IMG/VR virus record: IMGVR_UViG_2534681773_000025
Direction: 5' to 3' (one strand)
Length of the DNA stretch: 16,210 bases
Source: a virus
Taxonomy: Duplodnaviria; Heunggongvirae; Uroviricota; Caudoviricetes
Below are positions 8,119-14,805 of this stretch, piece by piece (position 1 is the stretch's first letter; every line of letters starts with the position of its first letter). The position numbers and the translations under genes were made by a program. Below the pieces are notes generated by a model. The model did not search any database. It was not told the origin of the DNA and saw only the letters and a list, made by a program, of their open reading frames with translations.

Positions 8119-8710
8119 CAGATAGCCTCAAGCACCCGCAGCAATTCTACTTAACTACCGTTACCTCGCCAATATGAAATCAATCAGAAAGGTGATCCAT
8201 AAGAACAACAGCAAGACAATAAATTGCCATTACAGCAGCAATAGCCAGCGCACATTTGAGAACCAGCACCACAACCTCCTGTATTGGACGTACACCAGTC
8301 CTGATAAATATGAGGCTGTCTCGTCAGTGATTCAATACAACTACTGGGTATAGTTTCTATGATTTTGTTCTGTGGAAATGGAAAACAGCAACCAGTCACC
8401 ACCAGCACTTCTTTAAACATGCCAAGTCACACGCAAGCCAACATTATAGTTCCCTTTGAGCGAGCAGATGAAGCTAGCAAAAATATTGATCACTTAGGAT
8501 GCATTACTAACGTTGCTATGTGTTAACGAACAGGGAGTGGGTCATCAGCATAAATATTTATGCAGTAGGTTTCTTTTAGGACTAGATTAATCAAAAACAT
8601 TTAGATAAAATTATAAAATCAAGAAATTGGTGGCAATTAATCTTTAATTGTGCCAGCTGAATTTCGTTATTATAGAAGATTAGCTTTTTTTTGAGTGTTT
8701 GGAGAGTAAA

Positions 8711-9406
8711 ATGTTAGAACCACCAAAGAGTTATAATGAAATGTTGCCTATGCTCCATAAGGCGACTTTTATTACTACATTTATATTTTACCTATCATTA
8801 GTCATTTATGGCTACATGCCATTGGTTGGCATTAATGCCAAGTATATCCCCCCCGTTAAAGACTACGAGGAATTTATTAAATGGATATTAACCTTTGGCA
8901 TATTACCAATTGCATCTTCAGTTTTTTGGTCAGTAATTAGTGGAGCTTTAGATCTACATAATAATGTAGCAAAAATTATTGGAATAAGGAAGATGTGGGA
9001 TAGTCATTTAATTATTAAACCATTAGCAAAAATTGCAGGCGTTACGAGAAAATTAACTACTGATGAATCTCACAAGGTAATGAGTAAACTGTATTACCCA
9101 GAAGTTAAAGAGTTAAAAGACAAACATTACGTTGAACTTTTCTGGAACAAAGTTTATTACTTTTGGGTTTTCTTTGAACATACAGTAATCGCATTTGTTA
9201 CTATTTTAATAATAAGTATCGCCAAATTAACAAATATATTCTCTGTTACTGGCTCTTTAATTAATCTTTGGTTGTGGATTATTTCTCTTGTCGCATTTGA
9301 CTTCCTTATTTTCATAGCATCAGTTAAACCAAGAACAGAAAGCCAAGTAAGACAAATACCTGATAGCAAAATAAAAGAATTCTTTAACAATAACAATATT
9401 TTTTAA
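8711..9406 (+). CDS. Hypothetical integral membrane protein with four predicted transmembrane helices, AT-rich
   Basis: ATG 8711 with GGAGAG ribosome-binding site (the track start at 8699 is TTG). Hydrophobic stretches ATFITTFIFYLSLVIYGYMPLVGI, FIKWILTFGILPIASSVFWSVISGAL, YYFWVFFEHTVIAFVTILIISIAKL and LINLWLWIISLVAFDFLIFIASV. The region is much lower in GC than its flanks. Confidence 0.7.
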   Translation: MLEPPKSYNEMLPMLHKATFITTFIFYLSLVIYGYMPLVGINAKYIPPVKDYEEFIKWILTFGILPIASSVFWSVISGALDLHNNVAKIIGIRKMWDSHLIIKPLAKIAGVTRKLTTDESHKVMSKLYYPEVKELKDKHYVELFWNKVYYFWVFFEHTVIAFVTILIISIAKLTNIFSVTGSLINLWLWIISLVAFDFLIFIASVKPRTESQVRQIPDSKIKEFFNNNNIF

Positions 9407-9418
9407 ACGAGGTTGATT

Positions 9419-10072
9419 TTGAATTACAAAATAAATGGAATAAACATACGTTCAGAAAATGCAGCGAAACCGCACACTATGCCATCTAACTATCTCTGTA
9501 AACAGATTGAAAGCACTAATAAAAATGGCAATGCCCTTGATTTTGGATGTGGAAAACTTAGATATTCAGAACAATTAGTAAATAAATTTGAAACTGTGAC
9601 ATTTTTAGATTCCAGAAGACAACTAGAAAGAGTGCAAATTATCAGAGGTGTACAAACCACGATTCCAGATTACGTGATAAATAACTATAAGAATGCTAAT
9701 ATTGTTTCTTATGAAAATATAGATAAAATAACAAATCATTATGATTTCATACTTTGCGCAAACGTGCTTTCCGCAATTCCATGTGAATCCACAATTCACA
9801 AAGTCCTCAGTGCGATTAGAGAATTATTAAAGAGTGATGGTGAAGCACTGATTGTCAATCAATACAAAAGTTCTTATTTCAAGAGGTACGAGAGCGGTAT
9901 TAAACATTTGCATGGGTATATATACCAAAACTCTCGCAATGCTTTCTACTATGGTTTATTAGATGTGGATACTGTAAGTAAAATATGCTCAGATAATAAT
10001 TTAGAAATAATAAAATCATGGAGCAAAGCAGGTAGTTCATATGTGGTTGTTGGTAAACATATACATATTTAG
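9419..10072 (+). CDS. Class I SAM-dependent methyltransferase-like protein (small-molecule/RNA type, not a DNA methyltransferase)
   Basis: Motif I ALDFGCGKLRY. Start is TTG at 9419 (GAGG 6 nt upstream) or TTG at 9413, 7-13 nt after the membrane protein stop, indicating an operon. No DPPY/NPPY motif. Confidence 0.65.
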   Translation: MNYKINGINIRSENAAKPHTMPSNYLCKQIESTNKNGNALDFGCGKLRYSEQLVNKFETVTFLDSRRQLERVQIIRGVQTTIPDYVINNYKNANIVSYENIDKITNHYDFILCANVLSAIPCESTIHKVLSAIRELLKSDGEALIVNQYKSSYFKRYESGIKHLHGYIYQNSRNAFYYGLLDVDTVSKICSDNNLEIIKSWSKAGSSYVVVGKHIHI

Positions 10073-10386
10073 TTTATTTCAACAAATTATTAGAAAGAGT
10101 GATTTGCTTGTTAATTATTAGCTCGGCAGTGCCGGATCAACATGACCCTGCCACTTAGGCCATTGCCGGTTTACCTACTTTTGTAAGGTTCAGCATGAAG
10201 TTTTTATATACTCTTCCTAATATCAATAGTGATGCTCGCTTATGTTAGCTGCTTCTTGTACATAGTAGCCTTCTCCGACAGTACTGCAATGAGCGGAGAG
10301 TAAAAGTCGATAAACAATAAGGAGGTTCACAATAAATATTTCTCGGTGAAACTTTCAAAGCATTCTCTGTTTTGCTAAATCGACAA

Positions 10387-11286
10387 TTATAAATCAACAA
10401 CATTTAGTGTTATATCAATATTATTTAGCCTTGCAATCTCTGATGAATCACTTGCTATTTTAGCTTTTAATTTATCAATATTAATCATATCTTCATGGCT
10501 TATATAAACCATATCACCTTGGTTAACTTTAGATTTGTTCACTATGGCTTGAATAACAGACAAATCATCCATTACACCTCTCATAAATTTCACCATGCTT
10601 TGATCTTTGAAGTCAGATATCGATTTTGAACGTTGCTTACGTTGAATTGTTCCTTTTGTAATTACTTCATTAATTTCTTTTAAACCAGTGAGCATATCAG
10701 ACAGACTGCCTTCGCAACTCATCCGATGTTTTATTGCATTGCGATTAATAATATTGAGTATAATTTCGAGTGAATCTTTATCACTCCATGGATGTAATGA
10801 TGTATAATCATGATGGCGTCGAATGGCGTCAATCATATCCTGGACCATATCTTCATCTGCTTTATCGCAAAGTTCATTCACGAAATAGCTGGGGTCGATT
10901 ATTTTACAATAACTTGGAGTTAGGTATCTTGAGGCTTTACAAAAACCAAAAATATATAAAGTAGAGTATTTATCTTTCAGACTCTCTCCTATTTCATTTA
11001 TTTTCTCAAAAGATTCGATAGTTTTTTTAATTTTTGCTGGACTTGCATTCGTAGTAACTTGAACTGCTATCATGTTTTTATTATCAGCTAAATCAATGGC
11101 GGGAAAATTAACTTTAATCTGATTCATGTTTACCAGTTCACCCATTTTCAGCGCGCGAAACATAAAGATGGTCAATGACTCAATTATTCTTTCCATGTCA
11201 TGAAAGCCTGCCTGTTTGCGTTGCGCGATATAAAGCTGGAGTAGTGCAATATCACTCTGTAAGTTTCTAATAAGTGGATCAATCAT
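10387..11286 (-). CDS. Hypothetical 299-aa cytoplasmic protein, AT-rich, convergent with the membrane/methyltransferase operon
   Basis: ATG 11286 with AAGGA ribosome-binding site. N-terminal block NFPAIDLADNKNMIAVQVTTNASPAKIKKTIESF resembles PD-(D/E)xK-like or SMEK-type N-terminal modules, but this is unverified. Confidence 0.65.
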   Translation of the reverse strand: MIDPLIRNLQSDIALLQLYIAQRKQAGFHDMERIIESLTIFMFRALKMGELVNMNQIKVNFPAIDLADNKNMIAVQVTTNASPAKIKKTIESFEKINEIGESLKDKYSTLYIFGFCKASRYLTPSYCKIIDPSYFVNELCDKADEDMVQDMIDAIRRHHDYTSLHPWSDKDSLEIILNIINRNAIKHRMSCEGSLSDMLTGLKEINEVITKGTIQRKQRSKSISDFKDQSMVKFMRGVMDDLSVIQAIVNKSKVNQGDMVYISHEDMINIDKLKAKIASDSSEIARLNNIDITLNVVDL

Positions 11287-11322
11287 AGCTAATAATCCTT
11301 TTCAATGAAGCTGGAGGTGTGT

Positions 11323-11337
11323 TTAACTATTAGTTAA
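11323..11337. promoter_or_regulatory. Perfect palindrome TTAACTA-t-TAGTTAA upstream of the 299-aa gene (candidate operator)
   Basis: Read from the sequence, about 35 bp upstream of the start codon. AT-rich context, so chance occurrence is possible. Confidence 0.3.
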
Positions 11338-11547
11338 ATTTCTATTTTTATAGAAACAAGCTTTACAACTTCATCAAAGTTTCTCAAATCCTAATCCACT
11401 TTGCAAATCCACTAACCATGCTGAATGCTTTCTGTTGTTAAACATATCCGCTGCTGGCACCAAGCAGACAAACACACTAACTCTACCCTACTCCACAAAA
11501 GAGCCAATCAATATCTGAACTAATAAACTTTAATCTCATCACTTCAA

Positions 11548-11552
11548 TAAAT
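11548..11552. repeat. IS2 target-site duplication, left copy (TAAAT)
   Basis: Identical 5-bp TAAAT directly flanks both ends of the IS2 element (second copy at 12884..12888). Confidence 0.85.
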
Positions 11553-11563
11553 TGGATTTGCCC

Positions 11564-12469
11564 CTATATTTCCAGACATCTGTTATCACTTAACCCATTA
11601 CAAGCCCGCTGCCGCAGATATTCCCGTGGCGAGCGATAACCCAGCGCACTATGCGGATGCCATTCGTTATAATGCTCGAACGCCTCTGCAAGGTTCTTTG
11701 CTGCCGTTAACCCGTCTGGTTTGGGCATGATACTGATGTAGTCACGCTTTATCGTTTTCACGAAGCTCTCTGCTATTCCGTTACTCTCCGGACTCCGCAC
11801 CGCCGTGTTCTTCGGTTCAAGTCCCAACATCCGGGCGAACTGGCGTGTTTCATTAGCCCGGTAGCATGAACCATTATCCGTCAGCCACTCCACTGGAGAC
11901 GACGGAAGATCGTTGCCGAAGCGGCGTTCCACCGCTCCCAGCATGACGTCCTGTACTGTTTCACTGTTGAAGCCGCCGGTAGTGACCGCCCAGTGCAGTG
12001 CCTCACGATCACAGCAGTCCAGCGCGAACGTGACACGCAGTCTCTCTCCGTTATCACAGCAGAACTCGAACCCGTCAGAGCACCATCGCTGATTGCTTTC
12101 TTTCACGGCCACTCTGCCTGTATGTGCCCGTTTCGATGGCGGTACAGCAGGTTTTCGCTCAAGCAACAGCGCATTCTGGCGCATGATCCGGTAAACACGT
12201 TTGGCATTGATCGCAGGCATACCATCAAGTTCTGCCTGTCTGCGAAGCAGCGCCCATACCCGACGATAACCATACGTGGGCAGCTCTCCGATAACATGGT
12301 GTATACGGAGAAGCACATCCGTATCATCAGTGTGACGACTGCGGCGGCCATCCATCCAGTCATCGGTTCGTCTGAGAATGACGTGCAACTGCGCACGCGA
12401 CACCCGGAGACAACGGCTGACTAAGCTTACTCCCCATCCCCGGGCAATAAGGGCGCGTGCGCTATCCAC
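11564..12469 (-). CDS. insD: IS2 transposase OrfB (InsD); expressed as an OrfAB fusion by -1 frameshift
   Basis: 301-aa [33 protein letters not shown]... with a DDE transposase/integrase core. Confidence 0.9.
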
Positions 12470-12792
12470 TTTTTTGCCCGTCCATATTCAACGGCTTCTT
12501 TGAGGAGTTCATTTTCCATCGTTTTCTTGCCGAGCAGGCGCTGGAGTTCTTTAATCTGCTTCATGGCGGCAGCAAGTTCAGAGGCAGGAACAACCTGTTC
12601 TCCGGCGGCGACAGCAGTAAGACTTCCTTCCTGGTATTGCTTACGCCAGAGAAATAACTGGCTGGCTGCTACACCATGTTGCCGGGCAACGAGGGAGACC
12701 GTCATCCCCGGTTCAAAGCTCTGCTGAACAATTGCGATCTTTTCCTGTGTGGTACGCCGTCTGCGTTTCTCCGGCCCTAAGACATCAATCAT
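12427..12792 (-). CDS. insC: IS2 OrfA (InsC) HTH regulator/transposase N-terminal part
   Basis: 121 aa from ATG 12792 ([26 protein letters not shown]...). The 136-aa track ORF starts further upstream inside the inverted repeat. Confidence 0.9.
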
Positions 12793-12880
12793 CTGTTCTC
12801 CAATGACTAGTCTAAAAACTAGTATTAAGACTATCACTTATTTAAGTGATACTGGTTGTCTGGAGATTCAGGGGGCCAGT

Positions 12881-13297
12881 CTATAAATATCGAGCATTTC
12901 CCTGATAGAATGCTAGTATGCGCTGCATAACTTCACTCTTCCGGCACTCGCGACAGATTATGTTCTGACGCCTGTCGTAGCGACGTATTTCTCCGTCAGG
13001 TAATGACCAGATAAGGTCCGGATCAACCGCAGATGGTTCCTTCAGCTTTGCCCTTGAGAGCTTTTTACGGGCATTTTGCCAGTCCTTACGCGCCTGTTCA
13101 GACGGGAATAACCCGTAACCAGAGTTGTATACATCGCCGCTGGCAACCAGCTCTCTTGCGAGAACGCTCATCAGATATCTTGTCGCACCTGTCTTGACTT
13201 CCAGTTGCCGTAACGTCTCACGCCCACTCCGGCGTACGAGTTCAACAACCTGCCCTTTAATTTTTTCCCGCTCTTCTTGTGTAAAAACTTTTGCCAC
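12881..13297 (-). CDS. Hypothetical 138-aa protein downstream of the replication initiator; its stop codon is supplied by the IS2 end
   Basis: GTG start with AGGAGG ribosome-binding site. The present stop TAG is the terminal CTA of IS2. The reconstructed pre-insertion sequence would end ...RYLLK-stop, so the insertion trims two residues. Confidence 0.6.
12884..12888. repeat. IS2 target-site duplication, right copy (TAAAT)
   Basis: Matches 11548..11552. Confidence 0.85.
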
Positions 13298-13337
13298 AAG
13301 CCCTCCTGAAAATTACCTCATGACCAGAAATTAACAC

Positions 13338-14303
13338 TTACCCCCTGAAGCCCGGCGGAATTTCGGTATCCGGCTCAGAAATATGATTCACACAACGCTG
13401 TACAGACGAACGCCCCAGGCGGATAACCAGTTCATCCCATTTTTCGCGAAGCTTTGACGGACTCATGATATTTTTTACCCAGAATGGATCCCGCTGCACC
13501 CGACCAAACATTTCACAAATTTGTCTGTGAGTTCTGCCATCCAGCATCCGCATTGTGCGCACGTCGTTGGCCCATGCGGTCCAGTTGGGTTCTTTCGGTC
13601 GCGAAATCTCGCCATCATCGCTGGCGGCCTGCTCGTAAAGACTCACGATTCGCCCCCAGATCCACTGCGCACACGCCAAATCTTCCTGGCTGCCCCACTG
13701 GCGTTTTTTCGCACTGAACACAACCGCGTCAGGGTGTCGGGTTAAAAAATCCTGTTCAACCGTCTGCGGGTCCGGTTGCGAAGCTTCCGGACGAGAAGTC
13801 TTTTTATTCTCTGTAGTAATCTCTGTTGTATTCTCTGTAAGATCATCAGGCCATTTTGACCCGATGACATTGAGTCGTTTTGAACCAATGGAGCGTTTCA
13901 TTTTGACCTCTTCCATCGTGTCATTTTGACCTGATGGAGCGGCGCATTTTAAACCGATGGATTCGCTCAATTTGCCACCATCTAAAAGCTCGCTCCCGTA
14001 GTTGATCGTGTAGAAATTGGTCATATCGCGCTTTGATTTATTGAGCTTTTCACAACGCAAAAGCCCCAGCGTTTTCAGACTTGCAAACGCGCGCTTTAAC
14101 GTTGACTCTGACCAGAATGGGAACTGTTCCAGCCATTGTTCCGTTGTGTTATAAATCCAGCGAACACCATCACATTCCATGCCGGAGTTGGTATCTCTCA
14201 ACCAGTAGTGCAGTTGTTGCAAAACAATGGCTTCGTTTAAGCCAATTTTCATTGCCAGCTGCGTGTTTATAACCAGTGGGCGTTCAGCAAAAAGAAGACT
14301 CAT
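13338..14303 (-). CDS. Phage replication initiator (lambda O-like replisome organiser) with ori iterons inside the gene
   Basis: The track ORF starts at TTG 14357; the likely start is ATG 14303. N-terminal winged-helix-like region (...WSESTLKRAFASLKTLGLLRCEKL...), a central repeat-encoding linker (IGSK repeats, TENTTEITTENKK) and a conserved-looking C-terminal domain. Family assignment is by architecture, not by search. Confidence 0.65.
   Translation of the reverse strand: MSLLFAERPLVINTQLAMKIGLNEAIVLQQLHYWLRDTNSGMECDGVRWIYNTTEQWLEQFPFWSESTLKRAFASLKTLGLLRCEKLNKSKRDMTNFYTINYGSELLDGGKLSESIGLKCAAPSGQNDTMEEVKMKRSIGSKRLNVIGSKWPDDLTENTTEITTENKKTSRPEASQPDPQTVEQDFLTRHPDAVVFSAKKRQWGSQEDLACAQWIWGRIVSLYEQAASDDGEISRPKEPNWTAWANDVRTMRMLDGRTHRQICEMFGRVQRDPFWVKNIMSPSKLREKWDELVIRLGRSSVQRCVNHISEPDTEIPPGFRG
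13851..13990. repeat. Origin-like iteron array (about six ~23-bp repeats, core TTTTGACC-n-GATGGA) next to an AT-rich stretch (13800..13850)
   Basis: Repeats read from the sequence: cattttgacccgatgaca, gttttgaaccaatggag, attttgacctcttccatcg, attttgacctgatggag, attttaaaccgatggat, aatttgccaccatct. Layout resembles lambda ori inside O. Confidence 0.6.
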
Positions 14304-14805
14304 AATTCCATCCAGCTTTTTGTTGGTATTGCTGTCGATACGCAAGCTTGAAAGCAATTGCTTTTTCTATAAGTTCGTCAGTTTCACGATCTACAACGGC
14401 AGGATCTGCAAAAAGCAGTCCGGATTCCACCACATCGCCATATTCTTTATTTAACCCGGCGATCATGTACGTAATACTTTTTCCATCACTGATCTCACGA
14501 TACAACCTGAAATCACTAATCCGGATAGCCTCCATAATCGCAGGCACTAGCGCCGTGAACTTTTCACGCTTATCCCTGGTGTCGATAGCCTTCCAGCGTT
14601 CGAATATCTTCACTCGATTAACGCCAAGCGCTCGCTGATCAACCGCGCCACCTTCATCTGTGACACGCTGAACATCGATGTTCGGGCGCTCTTTCAAAGC
14701 CCAGAATGCTTCAGTGATTAATATCGTCGCCTGCTCCTGTGTCATTCCTGGTCGACATATCCAGGCATCCAGAGCCTCACGAGCCTGTTCAGGAGTGATT
14801 TTCAT
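14284..14805 (-). CDS. Hypothetical 173-aa protein in the cII position (between the cro-like dicC and the replication gene); possibly YdaT-like
   Basis: ATG 14805 overlaps the dicC 3' end by 17 bp and its stop overlaps the O-like start. The YdaT-like suggestion is by position only. Confidence 0.55.
   Translation of the reverse strand: MKITPEQAREALDAWICRPGMTQEQATILITEAFWALKERPNIDVQRVTDEGGAVDQRALGVNRVKIFERWKAIDTRDKREKFTALVPAIMEAIRISDFRLYREISDGKSITYMIAGLNKEYGDVVESGLLFADPAVVDRETDELIEKAIAFKLAYRQQYQQKAGWNYESSFC

Follow-up and report, generated by a model that had tools for sequence, protein, structure and literature searches.

Classical polar insertions of IS2 in operons include those in gal and lambda r32. 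The curated IS2 of Escherichia coli K-12, 'insertion sequence:IS2A' (NC_000913.3 381260-382590), is 1331 bp long and is bounded by a left and a right inverted repeat (IRL and IRR). It encodes insC and insD with an A6G programmed −1 frameshift, carries a DDE (rve) integrase domain and makes a 5-bp target duplication, and all of these features are shared by the copy described here. IRL measures 42 bp and IRR 41 bp, and the role of A6G in frameshifting has been described (PMC3299598). Abutted IS2 ends form a junction promoter, Pjunc, which functions only with a 17-bp spacer, given by the 1-bp junction spacer (PMC3299598). An outward −35 in IRR gives rise to a fusion promoter only if a functional −10 is correctly spaced in the flank, and such IS2 fusion promoters are documented at ampC (Jaurin & Normark 1983), acrEF and neoR (PMC9330008).

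The present copy was found in a window of 16,210 nt, by which we mean the whole stretch of DNA analysed. The window comprises the first 16,210 nt of the draft contig AIGZ01000019.1 (GCA_000250195.2), and the AIGZ accession is part of the E. coli DECA collection (PMC3558956). We take the locus to be, very probably, a near-neutral and strain-specific IS2 insertion, produced by one transposition into a lambdoid prophage of one E. coli clone. Ordinary IS2 insertion is already known biology, and the locus presents no new mechanism or element type.

The IS2 element

The element, the sole IS2 in the window, occupies positions 11553-12883 on the minus strand (1331 bp, read from the sequence with its ends extracted) and belongs to the IS3 family. 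When aligned to K-12 IS2A it is identical at 1329 of 1331 positions with no indels. The two substitutions fall at IS positions 32 (A32G, in IRL) and 606 (A606C), and both are common to many other E. coli IS2 copies that are 100% identical to the window copy. Such identical 1331-bp copies occur in many E. coli genomes, where RefSeq annotates them as 'IS3-like element IS2 family transposase, programmed frameshift'. Among complete genomes, the site of this copy is a new one.

Read on the minus strand, the element starts with TAGACTGGCCCCCTGAATCTCCAGACAACC (IRL) and ends with ...CTGGAAATATAGGGGCAAATCCA (IRR). IRL, at 12842-12883 on the minus strand (its length taken from PMC3299598), has the tip TAGACTGG at 12883 and begins TAGACTGGCCCCC..., starting with TA. 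IRR, at 11553-11593 on the plus strand, faces a gene for a SMEK-domain protein; its tip is TGGATTTG at 11553 and it closes ...GGGGCAAATCCA, ending with CA. The terminal 26-27-mers each occur once in the window and not at all in shuffles. A composite transposon was also considered and rejected, as only one IRL and one IRR are present in the window.

The two overlapping reading frames are complete. The first, insC (orfA), spans 12427-12792 on the minus strand (121 aa from its ATG, by transfer of the K-12 insC1 coordinates) and contains the HTH_Tnp_1 domain (PF01527, E = 2.4e-19) in a reading frame that extends over 12427-12792/12837. The second, insD (orfB), spans 11564-12469 on the minus strand (301 aa) and, by Pfam and alignment, contains HTH_21 together with rve and rve_3, the DDE integrase core. 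The A6G frameshift window (AAAAAAG) lies at 12469-12475 on the minus strand, corresponding to IS positions 409-415, and the alignment to IS2A shows both it and the two frames to be intact. Length, inverted repeats, orfA/orfB with A6G, DDE domain, 5-bp duplication and near-identity to the reference all agree, and the element is an intact IS2. Its intact sequence, in conjunction with its absence from the closest complete relative, suggests that this copy is probably competent for transposition.

Insertion at a module joint of a lambdoid prophage

IS2 is flanked by two copies of TAAAT, at 11548-11552 and 12884-12888, and a 32-nt junction sequence is CATCACTTCAATAAATTGGATTTGCCCCTATA. A sequence-only reading of this DNA had described an intact 1331-bp IS2 that arrived by simple insertion, with a perfect 5-bp target duplication, and had proposed a comparison with isolates lacking the element. 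That comparison bears the description out. The two flanks are contiguous in many E. coli chromosomes, in which a query of window positions 10300-14400 finds 2,765-bp places at 99.9-100% identity. The empty site of E. coli C7 (L001) and of the O111:H2 strain 12A (L002) reads ...CACTTCAATAAATATCGAGC..., with one TAAAT. Strain 12A, moreover, aligns with all of the 16.2-kb window at 100.0% identity save for 1,336 bp, which is IS2 plus one copy of the repeat. The TAAAT pair is hence a true target duplication, and the insertion took place without any rearrangement. We are dealing with a true simple insertion and not with a chance match of repeats.

RefSeq annotation of the IS2-free loci and family scans identify the host element as a lambdoid prophage with DicA/DicC immunity. 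The order on the minus strand is dicC, a YdaT-family gene in the cII position, an O-like replication initiator (PHROG 391), a DUF977 gene and the IS2 site. Beyond this site lies an AT-rich island, followed by hokD, an RmrT/RmrA-like pair, DUF968, RusA and a Q-like antiterminator gene (3164-3730, minus strand). The island (window 8500-11550) has a GC content of 30-35%, against about 50% on either side, and contains, after a minus-strand gene for a SMEK-domain protein, methyltransferase and hypothetical genes on the plus strand. IS2, DUF977 and SMEK all lie on the minus strand, so that IS2 is co-oriented with the early-right operon and, as the earlier reading had it, separates the DUF977 gene from the SMEK gene.

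The isolated phages PhiR42_1 and HannyBb possess the same module of cro, cII-like, O-like and DUF977 genes, with other genes afterwards. The similarity of many prophages stops at about 12896, 8 nt from the IS2 target; past this point the DUF977 proteins diverge in their last six residues and the downstream genes differ. The placement of the element at an island boundary is thereby confirmed in two respects, for IS2 falls exactly on the GC/AT step in composition and also on a mosaic joint in the prophage. The breakpoint can be drawn at approximately 12889-12896, and the O-like/DUF977 module on its near side is common to many E. coli prophages as well as to PhiR42_1, HannyBb and mEp460.

Several neighbouring genes deserve description in their own right. 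The first island gene, at 10387-11286 on the minus strand, encodes a 299-aa protein that matches Pfam SMEK_N (E = 2.2e-22) and is named 'SMEK domain-containing protein' by RefSeq. The recognised part is confined to the N-terminal ~140 residues, the C-terminal half having no family match. The protein also matches the PADLOC model 'Aga_REase-PNTD1-PNTD2' over profile positions 9-143 of 463 (E = 1e-20) and may be a candidate defence-type effector. A 235-aa hypothetical protein and a class I SAM methyltransferase are encoded on the plus strand at 8699-10072, convergent on the early-right operon. Further along, at 5913-7647 on the minus strand, a 368-aa protein with HTH_3 and Peptidase_M78 domains matches PADLOC RmrA (E = 6e-105), and the 216-aa product of a gene that overlaps it matches PADLOC RmrT (E = 5e-25). 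The prophage of E. coli C7, though collinear in other respects, lacks this RmrA/RmrT block (a 1.8-kb insert, 5909-7722), which suggests that a candidate defence or toxin-antitoxin cassette was acquired separately here, beside hokD. A cluster of tRNA genes at 1243-1492 on the minus strand, comprising tRNA-Arg(tct), tRNA-Arg(tcg) and a tRNA with a CAT anticodon (Met according to ARAGORN, Ile according to RefSeq in relatives), lies directly downstream, on that strand, of a gene for a 352-aa DNA methyltransferase (1533-2591). Past the end of the window, the source contig has a gene for a 201-aa protein where strain 12A and a further comparison locus (L007) have dicB/DUF1482, which suggests an additional difference of the source strain in the dicB region.

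The gene that abuts the element, at 12881-13297 on the minus strand, encodes a DUF977 protein (PF06163, E = 1.9e-30; PHROG 142, 'Ren-like exclusion protein') of 138 aa, compared with 140 aa when intact. Its 3' end is clipped by IS2, as had been read from the sequence, and its stop codon (TAG, 12883-12881) is indeed supplied by the element, being the first three bases of IRL. The extent of the damage had been overstated. The insertion was placed five codons from the end of the gene, with the terminal LLK replaced, whereas the TAAAT target lies six nucleotides ahead of the intact stop codon and only the two C-terminal residues, Leu-Lys, are lost. When the flanks are joined in silico, the product ends in ARYLLK and has 140 aa, the RefSeq length; here it has 138 aa and ends in ARYL. 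The Pfam DUF977 model is matched at positions 1-133 of 134, within residues 1-135, and the last six residues vary (ARYLLK, FQDVAQ, YREVML) even between homologues with 90% overall identity. Since the domain is fully kept and the tail is variable, loss of DUF977 function through the clip appears unlikely, although a role for the last two residues is possible. PADLOC returned no match for either the DUF977 or the O-like protein.

Transcription through and out of the element

IS2 adds 1.3 kb between the DUF977 and SMEK genes. A scan of 11200-13400 for intrinsic terminators found none on the minus strand, and DUF977 and SMEK may thus be co-transcribed during lytic growth in IS2-free relatives. As in the classical polar insertions at gal and lambda r32, a 1.3-kb IS2 lies here in a long operon, in this case a phage early operon, upstream of essential regulators. 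It is conceivable, if doubtful, that the element is polar and weakens early-right (pR-type) transcription on its way to the island, the nin-like genes and the Q-like antiterminator; late expression would then be reduced or blocked, which would help to lock the prophage in. The position of IS2 within a co-directional string between the O-like/DUF977 and Q-like genes is in keeping with such an effect. So is the translation of insD, which takes place only after a rare frameshift, so that about 900 nt of RNA would be naked; as the insD RNA in a read-through transcript would be largely untranslated, some polarity on downstream genes, including Q, is possible. Rho-dependent polar IS2 insertions are counted as classical in a reference cited in PMC12095673, and no outward expression was detected from promoters placed over 150 bp away from the end of an IS3 backbone (PMC12095673).

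Other features of the locus argue against strong polarity. A literature search yielded nothing usable on whether polarity belongs to the classical orientation I or II of IS2, and a comparison of C and G on the two IS2 strands serves as an indirect stand-in. By this measure, the strand transcribed here is G-rich (390 G against 318 C) and contains no C-rich rut-like 78-nt window (C/G > 1.5), whereas the opposite strand contains 234. Strong Rho loading and polarity are thus less expected in this orientation. This sets the locus apart from the classical polar insertions, in that its orientation gives a transcript free of C-rich rut-like stretches. The lack of a minus-strand intrinsic terminator weighs on the same side, and phage antitermination, if the prophage has any, would override Rho. 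In addition, transcription towards the Q-like gene must cross the two convergent plus-strand genes at 8699-10072 even without IS2, as it already does in IS2-free relatives. Of the possible functional consequences of the insertion, the likeliest is still that it is partly polar on the island and Q genes when the prophage is induced, though we hold even this one to be unlikely.

In a non-neutral history, uncoupling of the replication module from the island and the Q-like antiterminator, or else weak read-out from IRR, would alter expression of the SMEK gene (probably a defence gene) or cripple induction, and the insertion would have been kept by selection in an O111:H2-like subclone. We consider this quite improbable. 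Persistence of the insertion in several isolates fits neutrality and is also compatible with selection; a change in expression, for its part, is not supported by the sequence data.

Read-out from within the element is a very improbable source of such a change. IS2's own promoter, PIRL, might in principle be read past IRR and add constitutive transcription of SMEK, given that IS2 is co-oriented with this gene and that no terminator-like site occurs on the minus strand between insD and SMEK. PIRL is, however, weak and repressed by OrfA (PMC3299598), the transcript would have to be 1.5 kb long, and the failure of deep promoters in the IS3 backbone to give detectable outward expression (PMC12095673) also speaks against it.

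The sequence-only reading had instead proposed a hybrid promoter, directed outward from the IS2 end and altering expression of the AT-rich island. It had correctly placed an IS2 end about 265 bp from the 299-aa gene: the SMEK ATG is at 11286 and the gap measures 266 nt. It had, however, taken this end for the insD-distal terminus. The insD stop codon is at 11564, 11 nt from the IS2 end at 11553, and the end facing SMEK is consequently the insD-proximal IRR. This correction favours the proposal, for IRR is the source of the −35 of Pjunc (PMC3299598). The hexamer TGGAAA at 11574-11569, 16 nt from the IRR tip, faces SMEK and fits the geometry of a 1-bp junction spacer and a 17-bp promoter spacer; from that geometry, we infer that it is the outward −35. 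As at ampC, acrEF and neoR, where IS2 provides the precedents (PMC9330008), an IS2 end with an outward −35 faces a co-oriented downstream gene, and the AT-rich flank would ease DNA melting.

The flanking half of the proposed promoter is less convincing. At 17-bp spacing, the flank offers TTTATT (11551-11546), which has no A at position 2, and spacings of 16 and 18 nt give poorer hexamers, while Pjunc is reported to be non-functional unless its spacer is exactly 17 bp (PMC3299598). A strict sigma-70 scan, which requires an A at −10 position 2, found no promoter-like site on either strand of 11200-13400, compared with 2.7 expected in shuffles. A relaxed scan returned only weak 8/12 matches, which were the same with and without IS2 apart from one: TGGAAA-17-TTTATT (11546-11574, minus strand; 4/6 and 4/6) is the sole promoter-like string made by the insertion. 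In a reporter study, no promoter activity could be detected from the 150-bp right end of IS2 by itself (PMC12095673). The setting differs as well, for at ampC, acrEF and neoR a functional −10 is correctly spaced at the IS end and near the gene, whereas here the −10 candidate is TTTATT and the gene begins 266 nt away behind its own upstream region. That native AT-rich region (11287-11552, minus strand) is fully kept, being contiguous in the empty sites and 99.8% identical to C7 and 100% identical to strain 12A, and transcripts from the junction would start about 250 nt upstream of the ATG and ahead of it. A hybrid promoter is possible in principle but is not supported by the junction sequence, and we think it highly improbable that one raises transcription of SMEK and the island.

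Distribution among E. coli and significance

To gauge how widespread the insertion is, a reconstructed 300-nt empty site was used as the query, with at least 80% coverage. Of 5,426 complete E. coli genomes, 1,158 contained the uninterrupted site, and 137 records matched it at 99% identity or more. None of the same 5,426 genomes returned a match spanning either IS2 junction in a megablast search with 140-nt junctions. A search of GTDB species-representative genomes likewise returned no exact junction match, as expected where E. coli has a single representative, and in the phage collection the replication module and IS2 are each present but never joined. Four recorded contigs encode exactly the truncated 138-aa protein, and the three examined among the matches listed are the source contig AIGZ01000019.1 (GCA_000250195.2), one from GCA_036927775.1 and one from Logan ERR144903. 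In the latter two, the junction ...CGATATTTA followed directly by TAGACTGGCCCCC is present and the contig then breaks inside IS2; the flanks match the window without a difference over 2.5 kb and 1.9 kb, respectively. Identical junctions and identical flanks in three datasets point to one inherited event. The simplest reading is a single insertion passed down in a small clone; strain 12A, the complete genome nearest to that clone, has no IS2 at this site.

Strain 12A itself has about 20 places that match the IS2-containing query, against a median of 4-5 per genome, although these counts mix IS2 copies with other repeated prophage segments of the query. The lineage thus seems to be rich in IS2, and fresh insertions of the present kind are to be expected in it. 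That an IS2 repeat was merely misplaced in the assembly is vanishingly improbable, for despite the draft source and the multicopy state of IS2 in the lineage (21-23 matching places in strain 12A, including other repeated prophage segments), the 5-bp duplication is perfect at both junctions and the same IRL junction recurs in two other independent datasets with contigs ending inside IS2.

The favoured history is thus that of a near-neutral insertion. An active-looking IS2 would have entered the DicA/DicC-immunity prophage of one clone by a single copy-out-paste-in event, its target TAAAT lying where a conserved replication module meets an AT-rich island of variable cargo. In the lysogen, the insertion would be essentially neutral. 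At induction it would, most plausibly, act by partly disconnecting the island and Q genes from early-right read-through, and not by creating a new promoter.

The value of the locus lies mainly in annotation. The IS2 junction, absent from 5,426 complete E. coli genomes and present in a few draft or raw datasets, provides a clean clone-specific marker. The IS2-bearing DECA strain and strain 12A form a natural isogenic pair, and a comparison of the two could show whether induction, or expression of the SMEK cargo gene, responds to an IS2 placed at a module joint of a prophage.
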